In this document: in pieces, positions 3,058 through 12,393 of the stretch
How positions within the stretch are numbered: the first letter of the stretch is position 1
Layout: every line of letters begins with the position of its first letter
NCBI GenBank assembly: GCA_022763165.1
Contig: JALEGO010000294.1
Location: 1 to 13,324 of the forward strand
Direction of reading: 5' to 3'
DNA: 13,324 nucleotides
Origin: Flavobacteriales bacterium
Lineage (GTDB): Bacteria; Bacteroidota; Bacteroidia; Flavobacteriales_G; JALEGO01
Translations under genes and position numbers: made by a program
Notes under the pieces: generated by a model
Seen by the model: the letters and a program-made list of their open reading frames with translations, nothing else
Databases searched by the model: none
Told to the model about the DNA's origin: nothing

Positions 3058-3135
3058 TTGGTCTACGCTTCGTCAAGCTCAGCGTGACAGAACACTTTCG
3101 TTGCTAATGACCTGAGACTAATGAAGTCTCATTTC
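3058..3135. repeat. REP-like palindromic element, copy B. Its right end overlaps the GIY-YIG stop codon.
   Basis: ttggtctacgcttcgtcaagctcagcgtgacagaacactttcgttgct is identical to copy C at about 45 of 47 positions. The distal arm cctgagactaatgaagtctcatttc has diverged. Confidence 0.7.
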
Positions 3136-3413
3136 TTATTCGACAATTCCTTTAACAATTCAATATTTCCATTTATCAAAGCTTCTTTTTTACTCCTTTT
3201 CAAACCCTTTATTCTATTTTCCCATTTAATTGCTTCGCTTTCTAAGCTGAAATTCTGAGAATAGACCAATTCTACCGGCCTTCGATTATAAGTATATGCT
3301 GATACAAATTTTCCTATTTGATGTTCATTCAATCGATTGGTTAAATCAGATGTACATCCAGTATAATATGAACCATCAGAGCATTTTAGTATGTATACGG
3401 TTAAATGTGGCAT
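3129..3413 (-). CDS. Small GIY-YIG nuclease family protein of 94 aa, YhbQ/UPF0213-like
   Basis: ORF track 94 aa begins MPHLTVYILKCSDGSYYTGCTSDLTNRLNEH. It carries the GIY-YIG hallmark (VYIL..GSYYTG...R...H) and the conserved downstream E/N region. Size is typical of stand-alone GIY-YIG proteins. Confidence 0.85.
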   Translation of the reverse strand: MPHLTVYILKCSDGSYYTGCTSDLTNRLNEHQIGKFVSAYTYNRRPVELVYSQNFSLESEAIKWENRIKGLKRSKKEALINGNIELLKELSNKK

Positions 3414-3420
3414 GCACTAT

Positions 3421-3500
3421 TTGGTCTACGCTTCGTCAAGCTCAGCGTGACAGAGCACTTTTGTTGCTGAAGTCCTGAGCCTGACGAAGGGCTTTCATTT
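3421..3500. repeat. REP-like palindromic element, copy C, carrying the best-preserved 15-bp inverted arms (cttcgtcaagctcag / ctgagcctgacgaag, 14 of 15 complementary)
   Basis: Direct repeat of copy B immediately upstream of the GIY-YIG gene. The internal inverted repeat can form a stem of about 15 bp with a loop of about 29 nt. Confidence 0.7.
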
Positions 3501-3590: not shown

Positions 3591-3971
3591 TTATACCAAT
3601 TCATTGGCCTTCAAATCCTCAAGAAAGCGTGCTTGAAGGTCTGACATAAAACCTTGAATCACATCAGCCTCGGATTTCTGGATGCCACTAGACTCTTTTG
3701 CTACTTCTTCTAAGATTTCAATAAAGAAATTGTAGGCGGGGTTTGGACCAACTTCTTTACATCTCTGGAGTGCTTTTTGATAAACATCTTCCAAGTCACC
3801 CTTTTTCTTTACCTCATAATCAAAGGACCATTTGATTTCCTGAGCCCAAGCATGATTCTTTAACATTTGAGAGAGTTTTTCCTTTTCCTCAGGTTGAATC
3901 ACTCCATCAGCAATACATACTGCGTATAGCAATTCACCTAGCGCATCATTTAATTTTTCTTGATCTGTCAT
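3591..3971 (-). CDS. TerB-like (tellurite-resistance TerB / DjlA N-terminal superfamily) small cytoplasmic protein, 126 aa
   Basis: Two helical repeats carry the TerB-type acidic motif: LLYAVCIADGVIQPEEKEKL and FIEILEEVAKESSGIQKSEADVI. Compare the TerB aADGeIxxEEk pattern. The assignment is by eye only. Confidence 0.55.
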   Translation of the reverse strand: MTDQEKLNDALGELLYAVCIADGVIQPEEKEKLSQMLKNHAWAQEIKWSFDYEVKKKGDLEDVYQKALQRCKEVGPNPAYNFFIEILEEVAKESSGIQKSEADVIQGFMSDLQARFLEDLKANELV

Positions 3972-4007
3972 ATTTAAAGTTTAGTTATATCGTTGTTTTA
4001 GTTGTTC

Positions 4008-4142
4008 CTAGTTATCTCGTTTTTCAAAATTCTCGAGTTTTTTAATCTTGGTTCTTCTGATCGCAAGAAATATCAGGGCAATCAAACAAAAGCCCATGAA
4101 AATACCTTGAGAACCCATAATCAATTTTGGTAACCATTCCAT
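4008..4142 (-). CDS. Hypothetical 44-aa single-pass membrane peptide (MEWLPKLIMGSQGIFMGFCLIALIFLAIRRTKIKKLENFEKRDN). Its ATG lies 1 nt after the ybjQ-like stop.
   Basis: Manual translation. The hydrophobic core GIFMGFCLIALIFLAI is followed by a basic stretch. The arrangement stop(TGA 4144-4146)-t-ATG(4140-4142) suggests translational coupling. The ORF is below the track's size cutoff. Confidence 0.3.
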   Translation of the reverse strand: MEWLPKLIMGSQGIFMGFCLIALIFLAIRRTKIKKLENFEKRDN

Positions 4143-4143
4143 A

Positions 4144-4458
4144 TCAACTCAGTTTTACAGCGGTTCCGTAGGCTAGTATTTCTGAACAACCTTGCATAAC
4201 CATTGAAGTAGTCAACCGGACATTGATTATAGCATCTGCTCCTAGTCTTTTTGCATCATCTTTCATTCTTTGGAGTGCCTGTTCCCTTGACTGAGCTTGA
4301 AGCTTAGTATACTCTTCAATTTCGCCACCAATTAGGTTTTTTAAGGCTGCAAAAATATCGCGACCAAAGTTTCTAGCTCTAACCGTACTTCCTCTGGCTA
4401 CCCCAAGTATTTGGGTGACACTTTTTTGAGGAATATTATCTGTTGTTGTAATTATCAT
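4144..4458 (-). CDS. YbjQ family protein (UPF0145/DUF74, heavy-metal-binding-like), 104 aa
   Basis: MIITTTDNIPQKSVTQILGVARGSTVRARNFGRDIFAALKNLIGGEIEEYTKL...ILAYGTAVKLS is collinear with the conserved YbjQ pattern M.vtTt..ieg..i.eylGvV.Ge.v.gan..rd.fa..rdivGGr...Y...l...R..A...m...A..lGAnAvv.vr.d...........v.a.GTAVkl. Confidence 0.85.
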   Translation of the reverse strand: MIITTTDNIPQKSVTQILGVARGSTVRARNFGRDIFAALKNLIGGEIEEYTKLQAQSREQALQRMKDDAKRLGADAIINVRLTTSMVMQGCSEILAYGTAVKLS

Positions 4459-4560
4459 TGTCGTGTATTTTTAGTTAAACAATAGGTCAACCAATCATTC
4501 TTTTCTTGGTTTCTTTTTGTCAGCGCTAGGGGTTGGAACGATATCCTTTTGGTTTTTAGT

Positions 4561-4630
4561 TGCTGGCACTTCGTCAGTACTGCGAAGTTATTTTGCCATC
4601 CTAAGCTTGACGAAGGATAGGCCTTCTAAC
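4561..4630. repeat. Degenerate copy (E) of the REP-like palindromic element (cacttcgtcag ... ctaagcttgacgaagg)
   Basis: It shares the cttcgtca(a)g / ct.agc.tgacgaagg arms with the copies at 2929-3500. A gaagg-atag-ccttc mini-hairpin follows at 4612-4626. Confidence 0.45.
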
Positions 4631-4654
4631 CAAAAGATAAAGCGGAAGACCCGA

Positions 4655-4682
4655 CCCCGATATCCTTAAGGACAAATCGGGG
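4655..4682 (-). terminator. GC-rich hairpin (ccccgat-N14-atcgggg, inner ccttaagg palindrome) 23 bp downstream of the flotillin stop. Possible terminator or attenuator on the minus strand; the following T-tract is weak (ctttatctttt).
   Basis: A 7-bp perfect stem seen directly in the sequence. The U-tract is not contiguous with the stem, so the assignment is tentative. Confidence 0.3.
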
Positions 4683-4704
4683 TAGCGCCCAAATCCTTCA
4701 TCCA

Positions 4705-6801
4705 TTAGTTGTTGATGAAATTTCTTGCTGGAAGATCAGATAGGCCAGCGTTTTTGGCCATAGTGTAAAGCTCTTCAAGCATTCCTTTTTGACCTCCATT
4801 ACTGGACTTACTTATCATTTTATAGAGTAAAGCTGACACAGTCAAGTTTTTAACATCATCTGAACTAATATTCAACTCTTTGATAAGATTTTGAATATTT
4901 TCCTTCAGGTTTCCTGAACCACCGTTGAGTAGTTGACTTTTCACCTCAGAAAGTGTCTCGCTATTGTCTATAAATCTGTCTACCATTTTCCCGTTTCCAA
5001 TGGCACCAACGAGTTTATCAAAGAATACTTGCTCACCACCTACGATGTCAATTTTCGCTGATTTAAGCGCTTGACTCATCACATCAGCTTGCGCAAAAGC
5101 GATGTCTTTTCCAACATTTACTTTAGCAAGATCCACTTCTTTTTCCTTTGCAAGTCTCAGTTTGAACTCTTCATGTTCTTTACCAGCTCCATCGAGTTTC
5201 TGCATCGCTTGAGCTTTTAACTCAATCACCTTCGCATCAATTGTTCCTTGCTTCTCAGAAGCACTTGCTAATGCCTCTTTGACCTCAGCCTCAGCATGAC
5301 CAAGTTTCTTGTCAGCCTCTGCTTGAGCATCAGCCTTTTTGCTGATACCATCGGCCTCAGCTTCGGCTGTTAATCTAATGATATCCGCATGAGCTTCACC
5401 ATCTTTCTTCTTAGCAAATGCTTTAGCTTCAATTACTTGCGCTTCAGATTTACCATGAGTCGCCTCTTTAACCGCTTCAGCTTCAGCTAAAATCTTGATC
5501 GCTTCAGCCTTCTGAATCGCAGATGCTTGTTCAGCTTCAGCATCGATAATTTTCTTTTTAGCATTGTATTCGGCAGCTTCTCTTTCAGCCTCAGCCTGCT
5601 TGATTCTCTCAACCATTTTGGCTTGAGCAGATTCTTCTGCCTTCTTAACGGCAACTGTTTTTTGTCGCTCTGCTGCGGCCAGTGCTCTTGTATCTTTGAT
5701 TTTCTCTTCCTCTTGAACAACAGTTTTCTCAATAGCAACTCTTTCGCGAATCACTTCTTGAATATTCTTACGCTCCTGTTCAACTGACTTCTCCTTTTCA
5801 ATCTGTGCTAGAGTAACAATTTTCTCTCGTTCAGTAGCCTCAAGAGCCCTGTCTTTTTCAACTCTCTCAAGTTCAACTGCATCCGCCTTTTCCTTGGCGC
5901 GTTGAGCCAACAATACTTCTCTTTGTTTATTTTGCTCTTTGACGAGTAATTCCTCATTAGCAGCAATACGTGCCTTCTCAGACTTCACTCTTTCCTCTTG
6001 TTGAACTTTAGCAGCTTCAGCCTCTTCTCTTGCTTTAACTGTGGCAATTTCACGTTTTTGTTTTTCCTCTTTTTCCGCTAACTGCCTATCAAGCTCTAGA
6101 ATCGCCTCTCTAGCTTCAACGTCTTGTTGTCTAATGATCTTTTCCTTGTCCCTTTCGATAAGATTGGCTTGAACCTTTTGTTTTGCCGTCAAATCGATGA
6201 TTTTCTTGATACCTTCAGCATCTAAAATATTTGCTTCGTCCAGAGCCTCAATTGGTGTCTGTTCTAAGTAGTCAATGGCAGCATCATCCATAATATAACC
6301 ATTCAGGTTTTTACCAATGGTTTGAATAATTTCAGATCTCAGTTTATCCCGTTCAGTATATAATTCGACAAAATCAAATTGCTTCCCTACTGTCTTAAGG
6401 GCTTCTGAGAATTTAGCCTCAAAAAGCTGATTTAAAGCTTCTTTTGAGGAGGCTCTTTCGCAACCAACAGATTGGGCAACTTTCTTTACATCTGAATGAC
6501 TTTCGTTCACCCTTACGAAGAAGGCCATTTTAATATCAGCGCGCATATTGTCTTTACATACAAGACCGTCTTTTCCCTCTCTTGAAATCACGATACTCTT
6601 TAATGAAATATCCATAACCTCCAGTTTGTGAAGCACGGGTATAACCAGCATGCCAGAGAATGACACTTTTACACCACCAATTCCCGTTCTTACTAAGGCT
6701 TGGCCCTGCTTGGCCTTCTTGTAGAATCTTGAAATTAAGGCGATGATTCCAAAAATGAACAGTATTACGATTACTGTTGCAACAATTACAGTTTGTGGCA
6801 T
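4705..6801 (-). CDS. Flotillin-like SPFH/band-7 protein (YqiK family), 698 aa. N-terminal TM helix, SPFH domain, long EA/K-rich coiled coil, C-terminal flotillin tail.
   Basis: The ORF track gives 698 aa. The N-terminus MPQTVIVATVIVILFIFGIIALISRFYKKAKQGQALVRTGIGG matches the YqiK/flotillin N-terminus. About 350 aa of REEAEAAK-type coiled coil follow. The gene sits immediately downstream of a YqiJ/NfeD-like gene, as in E. coli yqiJK. Confidence 0.9.
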   Translation of the reverse strand: MPQTVIVATVIVILFIFGIIALISRFYKKAKQGQALVRTGIGGVKVSFSGMLVIPVLHKLEVMDISLKSIVISREGKDGLVCKDNMRADIKMAFFVRVNESHSDVKKVAQSVGCERASSKEALNQLFEAKFSEALKTVGKQFDFVELYTERDKLRSEIIQTIGKNLNGYIMDDAAIDYLEQTPIEALDEANILDAEGIKKIIDLTAKQKVQANLIERDKEKIIRQQDVEAREAILELDRQLAEKEEKQKREIATVKAREEAEAAKVQQEERVKSEKARIAANEELLVKEQNKQREVLLAQRAKEKADAVELERVEKDRALEATEREKIVTLAQIEKEKSVEQERKNIQEVIRERVAIEKTVVQEEEKIKDTRALAAAERQKTVAVKKAEESAQAKMVERIKQAEAEREAAEYNAKKKIIDAEAEQASAIQKAEAIKILAEAEAVKEATHGKSEAQVIEAKAFAKKKDGEAHADIIRLTAEAEADGISKKADAQAEADKKLGHAEAEVKEALASASEKQGTIDAKVIELKAQAMQKLDGAGKEHEEFKLRLAKEKEVDLAKVNVGKDIAFAQADVMSQALKSAKIDIVGGEQVFFDKLVGAIGNGKMVDRFIDNSETLSEVKSQLLNGGSGNLKENIQNLIKELNISSDDVKNLTVSALLYKMISKSSNGGQKGMLEELYTMAKNAGLSDLPARNFINN

Positions 6802-6853
6802 AATTTAATAGTTTTAGTTTGTTAAAAAATTCGTTTTACAATAAAAATCAGTG

Positions 6854-7528
6854 CTATACGTAATGCTCATACGGCTCTACCAAATAGCATTCCTCCTGAT
6901 TGTCTTTTTCAATTACCAAAGCAGTTTGACCAGCCTTAAGCTCCATTTCCGGCTTCATTGCTTTGATATATATTAATATATGTGAGCCATCAGCGTCAAT
7001 TTCAGCTTGTCCTTTCATTTCAAAACTTGCTGGCAAGGTCACTTCACAGATTCTGCCTAAAATCTCCTTCTCTTCTGTGCCCTTATTCAAAGCCGCAAAA
7101 ACTTTTATAAATGGCATAGTCAAAACTTTTGCAATGAATAGGCAAACGATGAACGATGGTATCAGAATGGCAATACCGATAAGGAGTGTAGTATTTCCAA
7201 GAACATAATTTGCATTGACAACCATTAACCAAAGTGGTAAAGCAACAAAGCTCATAAATACCATTAGAGGGATTTTACCCAGATTGAAAAATCTCAAAAT
7301 GTTATTGATCCAAGATATGTCAGCCTCACCGTCAATGTCCCCAGCATCAACATTAGAATCAAATTCTGCATCCAAATCGATCTCCGCTTCCAAATCCAAA
7401 TCTATATCGATAAAATCCATATCTATTGCTCCAAAGATTACGATCACCCAGTATAGCACCACGAATAGTAAAAGCGCTGTGGGAATGATATTCGCTAAGG
7501 AAAATGATATGTCAATTAATTCTTTCAT
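6854..7528 (-). CDS. YqiJ family inner-membrane protein (DUF1449, NfeD-like partner of flotillin), 224 aa, with an acidic DIDLDLEAEIDLDAEFD insert
   Basis: The N-terminal TM segment is followed by the motif FNLGKIPLMVFMSFVALP (compare E. coli YqiJ LNIGRLPALVVLCLLAG). There are further TM helices and a C-terminal soluble beta-domain. The gene lies directly upstream of the flotillin gene. Confidence 0.8.
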   Translation of the reverse strand: MKELIDISFSLANIIPTALLLFVVLYWVIVIFGAIDMDFIDIDLDLEAEIDLDAEFDSNVDAGDIDGEADISWINNILRFFNLGKIPLMVFMSFVALPLWLMVVNANYVLGNTTLLIGIAILIPSFIVCLFIAKVLTMPFIKVFAALNKGTEEKEILGRICEVTLPASFEMKGQAEIDADGSHILIYIKAMKPEMELKAGQTALVIEKDNQEECYLVEPYEHYV

Positions 7529-7592
7529 ATTTAGTTTAAAGTTTAAAGCTGAAGGCTAAAGGTCTTCCATCAAAAAATGACTACAGGTTTAT

Positions 7593-8300
7593 TCAGCTAT
7601 TCAAACCCATTTTCTCCTTCAGTGCTGCTAAGGCGTCTGTTGCTGCTGTTTTTTCAGAACCTTCCAAAGCCTTATCAATTTCATCATCTACTGACCTGCT
7701 TTCATCTGCAATTTCACCATAAGCTTCTGCTAAAGCCTCAGATTCAGCAACTTTATCTCTCATTCTCTCCAACATAGCAATGGTATCAGAACCATCGATT
7801 TGCGCCATTTGCTTATTGAGTTTTTCAGTGGCCGCACTAACCTTCACTCTAGCCTTTAGCGTTTTCAGCTCGTTTTCCCATTTGCTGATATTGTGTCGAA
7901 TGCTCCTGATGTTTTGTTCTAGTTGAGAAATATTGCCATCAAATTTCTCACGTTCAGCTTTGGCCCTAGCAGCTTGCTGAATAGCCTCCTCCTTTTTGAC
8001 GAGCGCCTCAGTTGCAAGCCGATCAGCTTCAACAATATCCAAGTCTCCTTTTTGAGCCTTTTGCAATAAAAGCATTGCTTTGTTCTCATACTCTTTGGAC
8101 CGTTCAATTTCCTTCACCTCTTCGTTCTTAGCACGAATTTGCATTGCTTTAACTTCTGCCAAAGCATGAAGGCTTTTATCAAGATCTTCTTTCATATCTC
8201 GAATGCCCTGTTCGGTCAATTTAATTGGATTCTCAAGATGATCCACTGCAGCGTGGGCCTCAGCCTGGCCAATTTTAAAAAGTCTTTTGAAAATATTCAT
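7593..8300 (-). CDS. pspA: PspA/IM30 (Vipp1, phage-shock protein A) family protein, YjfJ-like, 235 aa
   Basis: MNIFKRLFKIGQAEAHAAVDHLENPIKLTEQGIRDMKEDL is the canonical PspA N-terminus (MGIFSRF..I..N.NALLDKAEDP.K...Q.IREME..L). The rest is coiled-coil. The gene sits 12 bp downstream of a YjfI-like gene. Confidence 0.9.
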   Translation of the reverse strand: MNIFKRLFKIGQAEAHAAVDHLENPIKLTEQGIRDMKEDLDKSLHALAEVKAMQIRAKNEEVKEIERSKEYENKAMLLLQKAQKGDLDIVEADRLATEALVKKEEAIQQAARAKAEREKFDGNISQLEQNIRSIRHNISKWENELKTLKARVKVSAATEKLNKQMAQIDGSDTIAMLERMRDKVAESEALAEAYGEIADESRSVDDEIDKALEGSEKTAATDALAALKEKMGLNS

Positions 8301-8312
8301 TGTAGTATATTT

Positions 8313-8705
8313 TTAATTTTTTGAGAACTCTATCAATTCCGATGAATACTCACTTAAGAGTAAACTCAAAGAATTGATGGATCCTTCTAATTCATTTAAG
8401 TCTAGATTTTCGAGTTGCAAAGTATCTCTAAAAATCAAGCGTTTTCCGCTTTCATCCAGAGCAAATGCCCCATGGACAATATCTCTGTTTTTCTGAAGGA
8501 GTTTGGTTAAAATCGTTTCATTCCCATTTAACTCTAAAATGAATTGCTCCATGATTAAAATGGGCTCCGCACATCCTATTACTAATCTGTTTATTCCAGC
8601 TTCTTCATCGTTTATTACTATTACTCCATCTTCAGCATTTTCATGGGTGATTGTGTAATCGAGATCGAGTAAATAGTTTTTCACTTTTTCAAAGTTGCTT
8701 TTCAT
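8313..8705 (-). CDS. YjfI/DUF2170 family protein (YbjN-like fold), 130 aa. This is the canonical upstream partner of the PspA homologue YjfJ.
   Basis: The 130-aa length and pattern GVIVIND.EAGINRLVIGCAEPILIMEQFI ... LLQKNRDIVHGAFALDESGKRLIFRDTLQLENLDLNEL parallel E. coli YjfI (LRITLAG.EELPVFVSLSD.QLVCAVNLW ... LLELNPAVPLSSFGKVGDAYVLFGAL). The yjfI-yjfJ order and spacing are conserved. Confidence 0.65.
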   Translation of the reverse strand: MKSNFEKVKNYLLDLDYTITHENAEDGVIVINDEEAGINRLVIGCAEPILIMEQFILELNGNETILTKLLQKNRDIVHGAFALDESGKRLIFRDTLQLENLDLNELEGSINSLSLLLSEYSSELIEFSKN

Positions 8706-8851
8706 GTATATAAATTATTGTTATTCAAAAATTTGCTTTAAAATTATATCTAAGCATTTAATTATCCAATACCACCCCGCTCAGGAATATTCTATGGCGG
8801 CATGAGATGAGCGCACATATATATTTTTATTTTCATTGTCGTGTTTTTTAC

Positions 8852-8859
8852 TAAATTTG
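8852..8859 (+). promoter_or_regulatory. Candidate Bacteroidota sigma-A -7 box (TAAATTTG = TAnnTTTG) for the XRE regulator gene
   Basis: Exact match to the Bacteroidetes -7 consensus TAnnTTTG, 62 bp upstream of ATG 8921. The operator palindromes lie between it and the start codon. Confidence 0.35.
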
Positions 8860-8871
8860 TTAGGTAAATAT

Positions 8872-8917
8872 ACTAAATATTTTAGTTAAAGCAAATATTT
8901 TTAGTAAAAAACTAAAA
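8872..8917. promoter_or_regulatory. Putative operator array. Palindrome ACTAAA-tat-TTTAGT spans 8872-8886 and palindrome TTTAGT-aaaaa-ACTAAA spans 8900-8916. A fifth ACTAAA half-site lies at 8850-8855.
   Basis: Perfect inverted repeats are visible in the sequence. Five copies of the same hexamer half-site fall within 67 bp, immediately upstream of the HTH regulator's start codon, in the divergent region shared with the psp/flotillin array. Confidence 0.5.
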
Positions 8918-8920
8918 TTT

Positions 8921-9598
8921 ATGTCATTTTTTGGTAAAAATATTAGAAAAATAAGAGGATTTAAAGGCCTTAGTCAGGCTGCGTTTGCAGAAATCTTTGA
9001 CGTGAATCGCTCTAACATAGGAGCCTACGAGGAGGGGAGAGCAGAACCTAAGATCGATCTCATCATAGAAATTGCTAAATATTTTAGCATATCCCTAGAA
9101 GATATGGTAGGGAAAGAGTTGACCATAAATGATATCAGCTCATTCAAGTTGTTTGACGAAGGACCTACAATTAAAAAGGAACAGGAGAGCCCTAAGATAT
9201 TACAACCGATCTTGGTGCGGGCGGTGGATCAGAATTACTATATCAATCATCACAGAGATAAACCAGCACTTGATCAAATGAAAATTAGCAATGACTTTGG
9301 GATTCTAACCTGCGACAGAATTTTTGAACTCACAAGTCCGCTTGATGGTTTAGGACTATCAGCAGGCGACTACGTACTTTGTGACTCAGAACTTGGATCT
9401 GAAGGTTTTGGCATCGGCATTTATAAGGAAGAAATCAAAGCTTTTCGAATTGAAGATATCCTGAATGAGGATTTCAGTGAGTCTTGGCGCATAAATGGTT
9501 ATATCAAAAAAAATCTTACTCACACCTCATTAGAAGCGCGCATGAATCATGTTGAGAAGTCCCTTATTGAATTGAAAGCCAGATTGAAGATCGATTGA
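8921..9598 (+). CDS. XRE-family (Cro/C1-type HTH) transcriptional regulator with a C-terminal LexA/CI-like (S24-type) beta-domain, 225 aa
   Basis: The N-terminus IRKIRGFKGLSQAAFAEIFDVNRSNIGAYEEGRAEPKIDLIIEIAKYFSISLEDM is a textbook HTH_3. The C-terminal SPLDGLGLSAGDYVLCD...GIGIYKEEIKAFRIEDI aligns by eye with LexA GDSMIDAGILDGDLLAV...VVARIDDEVTVKRL. Confidence 0.85.
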   Translation: MSFFGKNIRKIRGFKGLSQAAFAEIFDVNRSNIGAYEEGRAEPKIDLIIEIAKYFSISLEDMVGKELTINDISSFKLFDEGPTIKKEQESPKILQPILVRAVDQNYYINHHRDKPALDQMKISNDFGILTCDRIFELTSPLDGLGLSAGDYVLCDSELGSEGFGIGIYKEEIKAFRIEDILNEDFSESWRINGYIKKNLTHTSLEARMNHVEKSLIELKARLKID

Positions 9599-9637: not shown

Positions 9638-10378
9638 ATGGAGCAAAACAGCGGCAAACCACTGGGGCAAGGGGTCAGAACAATGGGACTGGAAGATCAA
9701 GCGCCTGATTGTGAAATCTACATCAACACTAAGATTTATGATTTAAAGGAATTGGTCAGCGGTAAGAGAGTTGTTGACATTGGATGTGGTTATGGCAGAA
9801 ACAAACAAATGGTCGAGTCCCTGAACGGGGAATGGATTGGAGTCGAACCATTTGAAGGTGGCGCACATACGGTTAAAGCTGATGCTGAAAACCTTCCTTT
9901 TGAAGATAACTCTTTTGATATTGCTATTATGGATGCTGTTTTGGAACATATCCCTGATGTTGGAAAGGCATTCAATGAGGTATCTAGGGTACTCAAACCT
10001 GGTGGCTTATTTGTTGGATACGTAGCATTTATGGAGTGTTTTCATGAAATCTCCTATTCCCACCTTTCGTTTAAAGCTTTGGAACACTATTCTAATATCA
10101 ACAATATGACCCTTAAGAAGGTCTCTGGTGGGAAAAGGTTTGGCATTGACTATCACCTTAATGTCATATTTTACCCTTTACCATTTAAAATGATGCGAGG
10201 ACTCATTGCGTCTTCTATCCGAACAACAATAAAGCTTAAATCAAAACTGGCTTACCTTGGTCTACGATATAAACGCAAACTGGACAGACAAGAAGCGAAA
10301 CGATTATCCTCATTGTATTACAAAATCGAATGCCTAAGACAATCCAATGGATTTTCTTATGTCATTGAAAAGAATTAA
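9638..10378 (+). CDS. Class I SAM-dependent methyltransferase (Methyltransf_11/25-like), 246 aa
   Basis: Motif I is VVDIGCGYGRN, post-I is EWIGVEPFE, motif II is FDIAIMDAVLEHIPD and motif III is LKPGGLFVG. Confidence 0.8.
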   Translation: MEQNSGKPLGQGVRTMGLEDQAPDCEIYINTKIYDLKELVSGKRVVDIGCGYGRNKQMVESLNGEWIGVEPFEGGAHTVKADAENLPFEDNSFDIAIMDAVLEHIPDVGKAFNEVSRVLKPGGLFVGYVAFMECFHEISYSHLSFKALEHYSNINNMTLKKVSGGKRFGIDYHLNVIFYPLPFKMMRGLIASSIRTTIKLKSKLAYLGLRYKRKLDRQEAKRLSSLYYKIECLRQSNGFSYVIEKN

Positions 10379-10438
10379 GACTTTTATATCTTATTGTATT
10401 ACTAAGCGAGACTTATAGATTTCGCGGTTCTGAATCAA

Positions 10439-10464
10439 TCTCACAAAGTACGTTCCTCGTGAGA
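10439..10464 (+). terminator. Weak hairpin (tctcac-N14-gtgaga with nested cctc/gagg) 60 bp after the methyltransferase stop. Possible terminator; the T-tract is poor.
   Basis: Inverted repeat seen in the sequence, followed only by aaatttt. Confidence 0.2.
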
Positions 10465-10504
10465 GGTCAAGTGACAAATTTTCAGCTGCTATCAGCCAAA
10501 TTCT

Positions 10505-10512
10505 TACCTTTG
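10505..10512 (+). promoter_or_regulatory. Candidate -7 box TACCTTTG (TAnnTTTG) 16 bp upstream of ATG 10528 of the AI-2E transporter
   Basis: Consensus match. It lies inside the 5' extension of track ORF 10459..11601, which argues that the true start is Met24 at 10528. Confidence 0.3.
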
Positions 10513-10527
10513 CCCGGAATTAGCAAG

Positions 10528-11601
10528 ATGAAAAAGAACCTGAATACCATTAAAAATGTACTATTACTTTTTGCCGTGATTTTGGTACTTTATCTCGTGA
10601 AGGTACTAGCCACTCTATTGATTCCCCTAGCCCTCGCTCTTTTCGTTGCACTGCTTCTACAACCGCTGATTGCATGGTTTCAATCTAAAAACTGGCCCTT
10701 AGGGTGGACCATTGTTGCAATCTCCCTAATGACAACCTCAGCCTTAGGGCTGTTAGGTCTAATGTTTGCCAATACAGGCGGAAAGTTCATTGCAGAAAAG
10801 GATAATTTGCTCCAGATGATCAACGATAAACTGGATATTGTATTTGTATATGTGGAACAATGGACTGGGGAAAAGCTGAGCCTGCTGGATATAGAAACCT
10901 ATGTTTCAACACACCTTTCATCTGATTTACTTATCACTTCTTCAGAAAAATTCGCAGATTCTCTAGGAGGTTTTTTCGGGATGTTTTTTATGGCTTCACT
11001 ATACCTGATGGCATTGCTTGGAAGTATTATGAAATATGAACAATTTCTGAGTTATTTAGGAAATGATCAGAAAAAAAGCTCAAGTCTCATCTCAGCTTTT
11101 GAGACGGTCAAAAATTCAATAGTTGGCTATATAAAGGTTAAATTCTTTGTTAGCTTTTTGACCGGATTAGGCTTCTTTATCGTTTGTCTGATCTTTGGTA
11201 TAGACTTCCCATTGTTTTGGGGATTTCTGGCGTTCATTTTGAATTTCATCCCCACAGTAGGCTCCGTGATAGCCACTTTACCCCCTGTTCTAATGGGGCT
11301 TATACAGTTAGAACACATGTGGGAGATCGTGTTGTTATTGGTGCTTTTAGGAGGGGTTCAAGTGGTATTTGGAAGTGTTTTGGAACCTAAGCTACTGGGT
11401 GACAGGCTCTCATTGAGTACAGTAGTTGTGATCTTTGGGCTTGTATTTTGGGGATATCTTTGGGGTGTGGTTGGAATGATCCTATCAGTGCCTCTCTTAG
11501 TATTAACCAAGGTAATCTTAAGTCAATTTCCAGATGCAGATATGTTGGTTAGGCTTATTGGGGTAGATAACACAACAACCATTAAAAAAACCAAAATTTA
11601 A
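10528..11601 (+). CDS. AI-2E family transporter (UPF0118/PerM/YhhT-like), about 357 aa from the preferred start; track ORF starts at 10459
   Basis: Multi-TM protein. The family-typical C-terminal block LSLSTVVVIFGLVFWGYLWGVVGMILSVPLLVLTKVIL matches the AI-2E consensus l.p.vv..sl.fwg.lwGi.G..la.Pl.a.lkv.l. The N-terminus MKKNLNTIKNVLLLFAVILV is a plausible start. Confidence 0.85.
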   Translation: MKKNLNTIKNVLLLFAVILVLYLVKVLATLLIPLALALFVALLLQPLIAWFQSKNWPLGWTIVAISLMTTSALGLLGLMFANTGGKFIAEKDNLLQMINDKLDIVFVYVEQWTGEKLSLLDIETYVSTHLSSDLLITSSEKFADSLGGFFGMFFMASLYLMALLGSIMKYEQFLSYLGNDQKKSSSLISAFETVKNSIVGYIKVKFFVSFLTGLGFFIVCLIFGIDFPLFWGFLAFILNFIPTVGSVIATLPPVLMGLIQLEHMWEIVLLLVLLGGVQVVFGSVLEPKLLGDRLSLSTVVVIFGLVFWGYLWGVVGMILSVPLLVLTKVILSQFPDADMLVRLIGVDNTTTIKKTKI

Positions 11602-11632
11602 TTTTAGTAGATAATTTCGTACCTTAGAGAGG

Positions 11633-12010
11633 ATGAATGTTTTGAGGATCATAATCGCTTTAATGTACTTGCTATCAACCAATGGCTTGGTTTTTAGTGC
11701 TCATTACTGTGCTGGCGACCTTAGTAAGGTTTCTATCGTGGAAAAGGACTTATCATGCTGTTGTGGCGATAAAGATATGTCTGATTGCTGCGAAAATGAC
11801 ACCAAGTTTCTGGAACAGTCAGCTCCAGGAGTAGATCTCAAATCCGAGCTGAAATTCATTTGCTTATCCGAAAGATTATATTCGACAGATTATTGTCTTC
11901 AAAAAATTGATGAGCAAGCGAATACTCAAGCAAACCCTTCTAATGGTCCACCAGGGGTCAGGAAGATCAGCTTTTTTCGCCTGTTTTCTTGTCCTCTACA
12001 TTATGCTTGA
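11633..12010 (+). CDS. HYC_CC_PP family small secreted Cys-rich protein, 125 aa
   Basis: A signal peptide (MNVLRIIIALMYLLSTNGLVFSA) is followed by HYC (AHYCAGD), CC (SCCCGD, DCCEND) and PP (NGPPGV) motifs in the order that names this Bacteroidota family. Placement next to an HMA-like protein and a TonB-dependent receptor is typical. The family assignment is from memory of NCBI annotation and has not been searched. Confidence 0.6.
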   Translation: MNVLRIIIALMYLLSTNGLVFSAHYCAGDLSKVSIVEKDLSCCCGDKDMSDCCENDTKFLEQSAPGVDLKSELKFICLSERLYSTDYCLQKIDEQANTQANPSNGPPGVRKISFFRLFSCPLHYA

Positions 12011-12060
12011 TAATCGATTTTTATTTCAAGAAATTATTTAAAAATCAAAATTGTTAAGAA

Positions 12061-12393
12061 ATGAATACTTTAAAATATATGTTTATCGGAATGTTCTGCT
12101 TCATAGGGCTTGCAGGGTATTCGGAAGTTAACACAGATACTCTTACAGTGAAAGGGTCTTGTGAAAAATGTGAAATGCAAATTGAGGAAGCAGCAATGCG
12201 TGTGAAAGGTGTCAAAGCCGCTGATTGGGAAAAGGGCTCAAATTTGCTAATCGTAAAATATAACCCTTCAAAAGTTGGCCTTGCCGAAATTGACAAGGCT
12301 GTTCAGGGCTCACAACATTGTGCTCCAATGAAGTCTTGTGGAGCGGCAACAAAAGGTTGCTGCAAATCTAAAGCATCTCCAAAGAAGGAATAG
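12061..12393 (+). CDS. Heavy-metal-associated (HMA)-like domain protein with a variant metal-binding motif (GSCEKCE) and a Cys-rich C-terminal tail (HCAPMKSCGAATKGCCKSK); signal peptide present
   Basis: TLTVKGSCEKCEMQIEEAAMRVKGVKAADWEKGSNLLIVKY resembles the HMA beta-alpha-beta-beta-alpha-beta core (compare GMTCxxC ... V..v.vd...g...V) but with SCxxC. Confidence 0.55.
   Translation: MNTLKYMFIGMFCFIGLAGYSEVNTDTLTVKGSCEKCEMQIEEAAMRVKGVKAADWEKGSNLLIVKYNPSKVGLAEIDKAVQGSQHCAPMKSCGAATKGCCKSKASPKKE

Follow-up and report, generated by a model that had tools for sequence, protein, structure and literature searches.

A 13,324-bp contig that makes up the whole of the stretch analyzed here (the window; contig JALEGO010000294.1 of the Flavobacteriales metagenome-assembled genome GCA_022763165.1) carries an operon in which genes for a CesT/Tir-like protein, PspA, a YqiJ-type membrane protein and a flotillin-like protein are followed, on the same strand, by several small genes and a giant AAA+ ATPase. 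We conclude, with a probability of about 0.85, that the locus is a Bacteroidota member of an already described PspA-flotillin-AAA+ membrane-maintenance operon, into which a lineage-specific segment has been inserted. The original prediction, made from the sequence alone, had read seven of these genes, ending with YbjQ, a 44-amino acid (aa) peptide and a TerB-like protein, as a composite envelope-stress locus belonging to no described system, in which PspA and flotillin would be co-expressed without precedent. The assignment to an envelope- or membrane-stress type of operon is supported, and its core is linked across the Bacteroidota; the claims of novelty are contradicted by published work. 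The operon class was described by Ravi et al. (mSystems 9:e00847-23, 2024; PMC11237479), whose Table S3 lists for Dokdonia donghaensis (ANH61663.1) the order '<-cHTH+Protease', CesT/Tir, PspA, YqiJ/YuaF, Band-7/flotillin and beta-propeller/coiled-coil AAA+. That flavobacterial example agrees with the window in protein families, gene order, the divergent cHTH and protease-like regulator, phylum and taxonomic order, and differs from it by a 1.8-kb insert between the flotillin and AAA+ genes that holds YbjQ, the 44-aa peptide, the TerB-like and GIY-YIG genes, and hairpin repeats. Neither that paper nor its supplement mentions YbjQ. A further precedent, tying PspA to an SPFH protein, is the PspA-YdjI pair of Bacillus subtilis. 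The core is thus one more example of a published operon, and what is new is limited to the small inserted extras, chiefly YbjQ and its peptide.

Shared gene neighborhoods show the extent of the system. From an alignment of flotillin homologs, whose relatives occur in >586 species, we drew 80 species-level genome loci out of the >586 matches, sampling Bacteroidota, Planctomycetota, Verrucomicrobiota, Acidobacteriota, Omnitrophota and other phyla; six-frame open reading frames (ORFs) of these loci were searched with the window proteins, and 66 loci had enough flanking sequence. Of these 66, 65 have a YqiJ-like gene 5' of flotillin, and 64 have a DUF3686 AAA+ gene 3' of it, the latter across at least six phyla. 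PspA orthologs are found in 41 loci, and a CesT-like gene in 39, where the next gene downstream is always PspA or an inserted YbjQ cassette; the divergent helix-turn-helix (HTH) gene, CesT and PspA occur all together in 39/66 loci, every one of them from the Bacteroidota. By the neighborhood check that the original prediction itself proposed, the CesT-PspA-YqiJ-flotillin linkage is therefore tight within that phylum. In the closest relative (L164, flotillin 68% identical) the gene order is the same, only 160 nt separate the flotillin and AAA+ genes, and YbjQ, the peptide and the GIY-YIG gene are all missing.

All seven ORFs of the original prediction were recovered on the minus strand at the coordinates it gave, with intergenic gaps, in order from the CesT-like to the TerB-like gene, of 12, 64, 52, 246, 1 and 36 bp, and a terminator scan found no terminator-like site within the 12-, 64- or 52-bp gaps, as had been claimed. 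Those coordinates do not delimit the whole system, since they omit two conserved partners, the DUF3686 AAA+ gene and the divergent HTH repressor gene. The conserved unit spans the HTH gene through the AAA+ gene, because the genes beyond the HTH gene are not conserved neighbors: the flank at 9638-12393 (plus strand) encodes an S-adenosylmethionine methyltransferase, an AI-2E family transporter, a 125-aa ORF and a 110-aa heavy-metal-associated (HMA) domain protein, none of which accompanies the operon in related loci.

Database matches identify most of the core proteins directly, and the remainder indirectly. The first gene's product, which had been labeled DUF2170/YjfI, matches CesT_Tir_1 (PF22550) over its full length at 5.4e-54; at E <= 0.01 its only matches are CesT_Tir_1, YbjN and CesT, and DUF2170 (PF09938) is not among them, so that the protein belongs to another family of the same superfamily. 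No solved relative of it, BacA included, was found among PDB sequences. The PspA label is borne out by a direct match to PspA_IM30 (PF04012; 6.2e-40, 137.6 bits against a cut-off of 33.9 bits). For the YqiJ/NfeD-type protein the assignment stands at the level of the family, in that 25 of 38 homologs match YqiJ_N (PF21001), but not for the 224-aa window protein, which has no Pfam match of its own; a profile of the family matches the soluble domain of YuaF (2k14) weakly (E = 0.05, residues 148-204). The flotillin-like protein begins with an N-terminal transmembrane (TM) segment and a Band-7 domain; a long coiled coil rich in Ala, Glu and Lys, evident in the sequence, separates these from a C-terminal domain. 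At its full length of 698 aa it matches nothing in Pfam, NCBIfam or PDB sequences; the label holds through the family name used by NCBI and JGI (flotillin family/YqiK) and through the isolated N-terminus, because with the coiled coil removed and the N-terminal 230 aa scanned alone, Band_7 is matched at 3.1e-12 over residues 29-176. The full-length match is probably suppressed by the long low-complexity coiled coil, and Band_7 is matched by 3 of 20 close homologs. The 966 N-terminal residues of the ATPase match DUF3686 at 5.8e-184 and DUF7902 at 6e-25. Full-length orthologs of 1643-1656 aa show the domain order DUF3686 beta-propeller, DUF7902, coiled coil and C-terminal AAA+, the AAA domain spanning residues ~1286-1409.

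Other known systems resemble parts of this arrangement. The 'biofilm-associated cluster' of Pseudomonas aeruginosa, bacABCDEF (PA3732-PA3727), consists of six co-transcribed genes that affect biofilm formation and virulence, and encodes the CesT-fold protein BacA (DUF2170), a PspA homolog, and then 23-kDa TM and 76-kDa proteins (PMC2587700, PMC10948618). In order and size the last pair parallels the ~25-kDa YqiJ-like and 77-kDa flotillin-like proteins of the window, and on the basis of the literature, gene order and protein sizes the bac operon is a probable member of this class. When the CesT-like BacA is lost, the levels of the other Bac proteins rise. The two operons differ in their first gene, which is DUF2170/YjfI in bac and CesT_Tir_1 here, and in their control: bac has a putative sigma-54 promoter, whereas the window has a divergent HTH repressor gene and no -24/-12 match, the best match to TGGCAC-N5-TTGCA in 8706-8920 carrying five mismatches. 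By analogy, the CesT-like protein may be a functional counterpart of YjfI and BacA.

In Escherichia coli, yjfIJ and yqiJK form two separate loci. The first resembles the window in placing a CesT-superfamily protein ahead of a PspA-family protein, and the second in placing a YqiJ-type membrane protein before a Band-7/flotillin protein; the window differs from both in that its first gene is not DUF2170 and in adding an AAA+ ATPase and a dedicated repressor. In B. subtilis, pspA-ydjGHI likewise combines PspA with small membrane proteins and an SPFH-domain protein, YdjI, on which PspA depends to reach the membrane; this link between PspA and SPFH proteins has been called 'hardwired'. However, YdjI is a short SPFH protein rather than a flotillin of 700 aa, neither a CesT-like gene nor an AAA+ gene is present, and regulation differs.

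In the divergently transcribed regulator an XRE-type HTH is joined to a degenerate LexA/S24-like beta-barrel, with a helix at the C-terminus. The C-terminal domain folds like LexA, and it lacks the catalytic Ser and Lys, as do most aligned homologs. LexA-type self-cleavage was considered as the induction switch and rejected for this regulator; it is an unlikely switch because the catalytic dyad has been lost. The divergent promoter region contains operator-like CTAA-N5-TTAG palindromes (Table 1), and the HTH gene itself contains an exact copy at 9075-9087 and one with a single mismatch at 8934-8946. Exact copies number three in the 13.3-kb window, all at 8851-9087. A Bacteroidota -7 box, TAAATTTG, for the HTH gene at 8852 (plus strand) overlaps the first operator-like site. 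In related loci the HTH-CesT intergenic region carries two to four analogous palindromes with lineage-specific half-sites, for example, GCTCAAAnTTTGAGC in Hymenobacter and TTGCAAAnnnTTTGCAA in Sphingobacteriales and Chryseobacterium. The regulator is a predicted repressor of both the operon and its own gene. An explicit operator motif that covaries with lineage also makes the regulon of the regulator predictable. Strict -7 boxes (TAnnTTTG) were also sought in the spacers upstream of YbjQ, TerB, GIY-YIG and AAA+ and none was found, a result that is uninformative on internal promoters.

The leader of the operon contains a candidate upstream open reading frame (uORF) that ends in Pro-Pro-stop (Table 1) and may act as a stalling leader. 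Upstream ORFs that likewise end in Pro-Pro-stop (...KFFPP, ...NYFPP and ...VKPP before the stop codon) are found in L002, L003 and L008, 81-93 nt before the CesT start, the rest of their sequence having diverged. In loci from the Flavobacteriaceae there is instead a very hydrophobic uORF of 15-23 codons, such as MILIACYLVNLAVSIVEKLCDFL followed by a stop codon, located 34-67 nt upstream of the CesT-like gene. Hydrophobic uORFs of this kind occur in the HTH-CesT intergenic region of 11 of 40 loci (L022, L028, L031, L034, L037, L040, L046, L053, L064, L073 and L076), compared with 3.2 +/- 1.7 in shuffled sequences, and third-position changes between species are synonymous. Either type of candidate leader, Pro-Pro-stop or hydrophobic, may couple translation or membrane insertion to expression of the operon.

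What is known of these families suggests a most likely working model. The regulator would repress the operon and its own gene by binding the CTAA-N5-TTAG operators, and a membrane-stress signal would lift this repression by some route other than LexA-type self-cleavage. The CesT-like protein would hold or regulate PspA; the flotillin/YqiJ pair would act as a platform in the membrane, bringing PspA polymers to damaged bilayer in the way that YdjI brings PspA to the membrane in B. subtilis; and the AAA+ ATPase would remodel or disassemble the resulting assemblies, in the manner of Vps4 acting on ESCRT-III.

Table 1. Coordinates of features in the window and of AAA+-adjacent TerB genes in related loci
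Feature	Position	Strand	Remarks
Regulator, XRE-type HTH	8921..9598	+	divergent; conserved component of the system
Operator-like palindromes, CTAA-N5-TTAG	8851-8863, 8873-8885, 8892-8904		divergent promoter region; last site with one mismatch
Candidate leader uORF, MKIKIYMCAHLMPP then stop	8792..8836	-	ends Pro-Pro-stop; 86 nt upstream of CesT-like start codon
CesT/Tir-like chaperone, 130 aa	8313..8705	-	CesT_Tir_1 family, PF22550
PspA/IM30, ESCRT-III-like membrane-remodeling protein, 235 aa	7593..8300	-	PF04012
YqiJ/YuaF-type (NfeD-like) multi-TM protein, 224 aa	6854..7528	-	acidic loop and C-terminal beta domain
Flotillin-like SPFH protein, 698 aa	4705..6801	-	Band_7 in N-terminus
Structured spacer, 246 nt	4459..4704	-	inverted hairpin-repeat copy inside
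YbjQ (UPF0145) protein, 104 aa	4144..4458	-	accessory, outside conserved core; PF01906
Single-TM micro-protein, 44 aa	4008..4142	-	conserved tail; downstream of YbjQ
TerB-like six-helix protein, 126 aa	3591..3971	-	small Bacteroidota-only subfamily
Small GIY-YIG nuclease-family gene	3129..3413	-	PF01541 at 1.5e-15
Giant ATPase, N-terminal 966 aa	2..2899 (2899..<1)	-	cut by contig end; DUF3686, DUF7902
Other-subfamily TerB	L164:15388-15783		35 bits
Other-subfamily TerB	L023:17704-18108		28 bits
Other-subfamily TerB	L001:17267-17734	opposite	26 bits
Other-subfamily TerB	L078:8439-8861		18 bits

The insert that sets the window apart lies at a junction that is an insertion hot spot. Two small overlaps aside, the normally short gap between the flotillin and AAA+ genes measures 4-1936 bp in other loci, compared with 1805 bp in the window, and the unrelated cargo identified there by eye from translations (L001-L080) includes genes of DUF559-like (in Hymenobacter), GxxExxY-like, GIY-YIG and IS200/RAYT-like type as well as others for lipoproteins and small membrane proteins. 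The structured spacer 3' of the flotillin gene that the original prediction had noticed is confirmed: its 246 nt have a minimum free energy of -71.3 kcal/mol (z = -3.06 versus shuffled controls) and contain the inverted-repeat pairs I1 and I2. A hairpin repeat of ~69 nt (GTCACNCTGAGCNNGNCGAAG; core GTCACGCTGAGCTTGACGAAGCGTAGACC; direct-repeat families D1 and D2) occurs as direct copies on either side of the GIY-YIG gene (3058-3126 and 3421-3489), as a partial copy at 2961-2983, and inverted at 4583-4630 within the spacer between flotillin and YbjQ; the repeat-bearing flanks of the GIY-YIG gene fold with z of -2.8 and -3.5. Because it has no match across 163 retrieved loci, the repeat is specific to this lineage, and because a scan of the window found no Rfam family above the gathering thresholds, its structured spacers do not correspond to known RNAs. 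With its flanking repeats, the GIY-YIG gene, which was found in 2 of the 80 loci, is probably a mobile or selfish insertion.

The part of the insert that recurs elsewhere is a cassette of YbjQ and the 44-aa peptide. YbjQ was correctly named, matching YbjQ_1 (PF01906) at 7.7e-40 and 136 bits over residues 1-103 of 103. A scan of metagenomes with the window YbjQ yielded 80 close relatives, 72 of them with room downstream, and in 61 of the 72 a 31-50 aa TM ORF with the C-terminus E[DN]FE[DK]R[DEN]N follows, starting -3 to +41 nt from the YbjQ stop (-3 to +13 in 59 of the 61). The window peptide ends in ENFEKRDN, and this conserved tail is predicted to be cytoplasmic. The peptide is thus a genuine conserved gene, as the original prediction had assumed, and an obligate neighbor of this clade of YbjQ. 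Neither Pfam nor NCBIfam has a family for it; a library of 1.84 billion proteins yielded 12 representatives of 41-45 aa, and the peptide is probably unannotated in the source record because its exact sequence is missing from the protein collection searched.

Within the operon, YbjQ was found in 5 of the 80 genome loci and in 3 of the 80 metagenome YbjQ loci, in three gene orders: after the flotillin gene in the window and in Crocinitomix (L003), between PspA and YqiJ in Aquimarina (L031, L053 and L076), and between CesT and PspA in metagenome loci L087-L089. The association with the operon is real but optional, and the cassette is probably a recruited accessory. We infer that the peptide anchors YbjQ, a soluble oligomer, at the cytoplasmic side of the membrane. 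A tentative extension, which we hold to be possible rather than probable, is that YbjQ and the peptide form a membrane-tethered accessory complex of the PspA-flotillin-AAA+ repair machinery, with TerB-domain proteins, two subfamilies of which recur next to this operon, as a second optional accessory. If true, such a complex would assign both a cellular role and a testable partner to the YbjQ family, long an orphan. The repeated recruitment of the YbjQ-micro-peptide cassette into the operon is the first contextual clue for YbjQ in this analysis.

Several observations weigh against the reading of the locus as a PspA-flotillin-AAA+ operon with a lineage-specific insert, or against parts of it. 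The roles given above to the CesT-like protein, the AAA+ ATPase and YbjQ draw on family knowledge and gene context. A scan of the last 181 aa of the flotillin-like protein gave no match to the Pfam 'Flot' domain (PF15975), and the AAA+ domain of the window's ATPase falls beyond the end of the contig. The predicted transcription unit contains structured or repeat-bearing spacers of 246, 177 and 229 nt, two weak terminator-like sites lie just past the flotillin stop (4692..4677 and 4659..4643), and no strict Bacteroidota -7 box was found on the operon strand, so that the operon promoter was not located. Finally, among the other 77 metagenome YbjQ loci, many of them on short contigs, the available sequence contains no gene of the operon.

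The last of these points bears on an account in which the YbjQ-peptide cassette is a neutral passenger in a permissive hot spot, with no functional tie to the PspA-flotillin machinery. We regard this as possible rather than probable. That 77 of 80 close YbjQ relatives are without a visible operon gene and that the flotillin/AAA+ junction is demonstrably permissive speak for it; further, in a neighbor-joining tree, for which 104 aa give too little resolution to tell independent captures from one capture plus rearrangement, the operon-embedded YbjQ proteins fall largely in one broad clade, so that a single capture followed by rearrangement is possible. However, the positions between CesT and PspA and between PspA and YqiJ sit in the tightly packed 5' part of the operon, outside the hot spot; all five YbjQ matches in 1.5 Mb of flotillin loci fell inside the operon, with none in the flanks; and the linkage is kept across several genera.

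A single dedicated and undescribed composite stress system made up of all seven genes (CesT-like, PspA, YqiJ, flotillin, YbjQ, peptide and TerB), as originally proposed, is improbable. The genes share one strand and are separated by short gaps, the YbjQ cassette enters the operon at three positions, and in four loci (L164, L023, L001 and L078; Table 1), which come from Bacteroidota and Omnitrophota, the gene immediately 3' of AAA+ is a TerB of another subfamily. Against this, the core has already been published, the YbjQ cassette is present in only 5/80 loci and the TerB subfamily of the window in 0/80, the closest relative has neither YbjQ nor the peptide, and the extras share a cargo-bearing junction at which they are interleaved with the GIY-YIG gene and hairpin repeats. 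Orthologs of the window's TerB-like protein in three other genomes adjoin carB, DinB/NADAR or polA, which are unrelated housekeeping contexts. The claim that YbjQ, the peptide and TerB are integral parts of the system is therefore not supported. The TerB-like gene is best seen as a lineage-specific insertion, and together with the GIY-YIG gene it is most likely a passenger at the insertion hot spot.

The TerB-like protein itself scores 19.5 bits against PF05099, under the Pfam gathering threshold of 24.4 bits; about half of its homologs carry the domain, and A21, D22, G23, E29 and E101 are invariant in the subfamily. A Foldseek search with the protein found nothing, and the best match of the subfamily profile to PDB sequences is only E = 0.38 (2ou3). 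By BLAST there is no similarity between the window's TerB and the AAA+-adjacent subfamily, and three of the four AAA+-adjacent genes are the sole matches of that protein in the 80 loci (1.5 Mb of sequence). A loose tie of TerB-domain proteins to the system is possible.

A membrane-acting anti-phage or abortive-infection module, which had been raised as a further option, is very improbable: PspA was originally discovered as a phage-induced protein, some defense loci contain TerB domains and XRE regulators, and the regulator matches generic PADLOC HTH models, but a search of ten window proteins against PADLOC-DB 2.0 returned, besides that generic HTH, only two marginal matches of the PspA coiled coil to LmuB (E 0.006-0.01), with the remaining eight proteins matching nothing. 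The operon is flanked by housekeeping genes, and YqiJ-flotillin-AAA+ is syntenic and near-universal over >586 species from several phyla, as befits a housekeeping stress system rather than a patchy defense island.

The PspA-flotillin-AAA+ operon also varies in composition from locus to locus. In Chryseobacterium (L070 and L080) the HTH regulator gene lies alongside YqiJ-flotillin-AAA+ without CesT-PspA, and in L014 and L030 PspA is present and the HTH gene was not detected. The closest relative carries a gene for an extra 188-aa Band_7 protein (L164:7307-7873) between its YqiJ-like and flotillin genes. Apart from the TerB genes, the 3' flank of the AAA+ gene is heterogeneous, with DUF4178 and DUF3592 proteins found there three times each.

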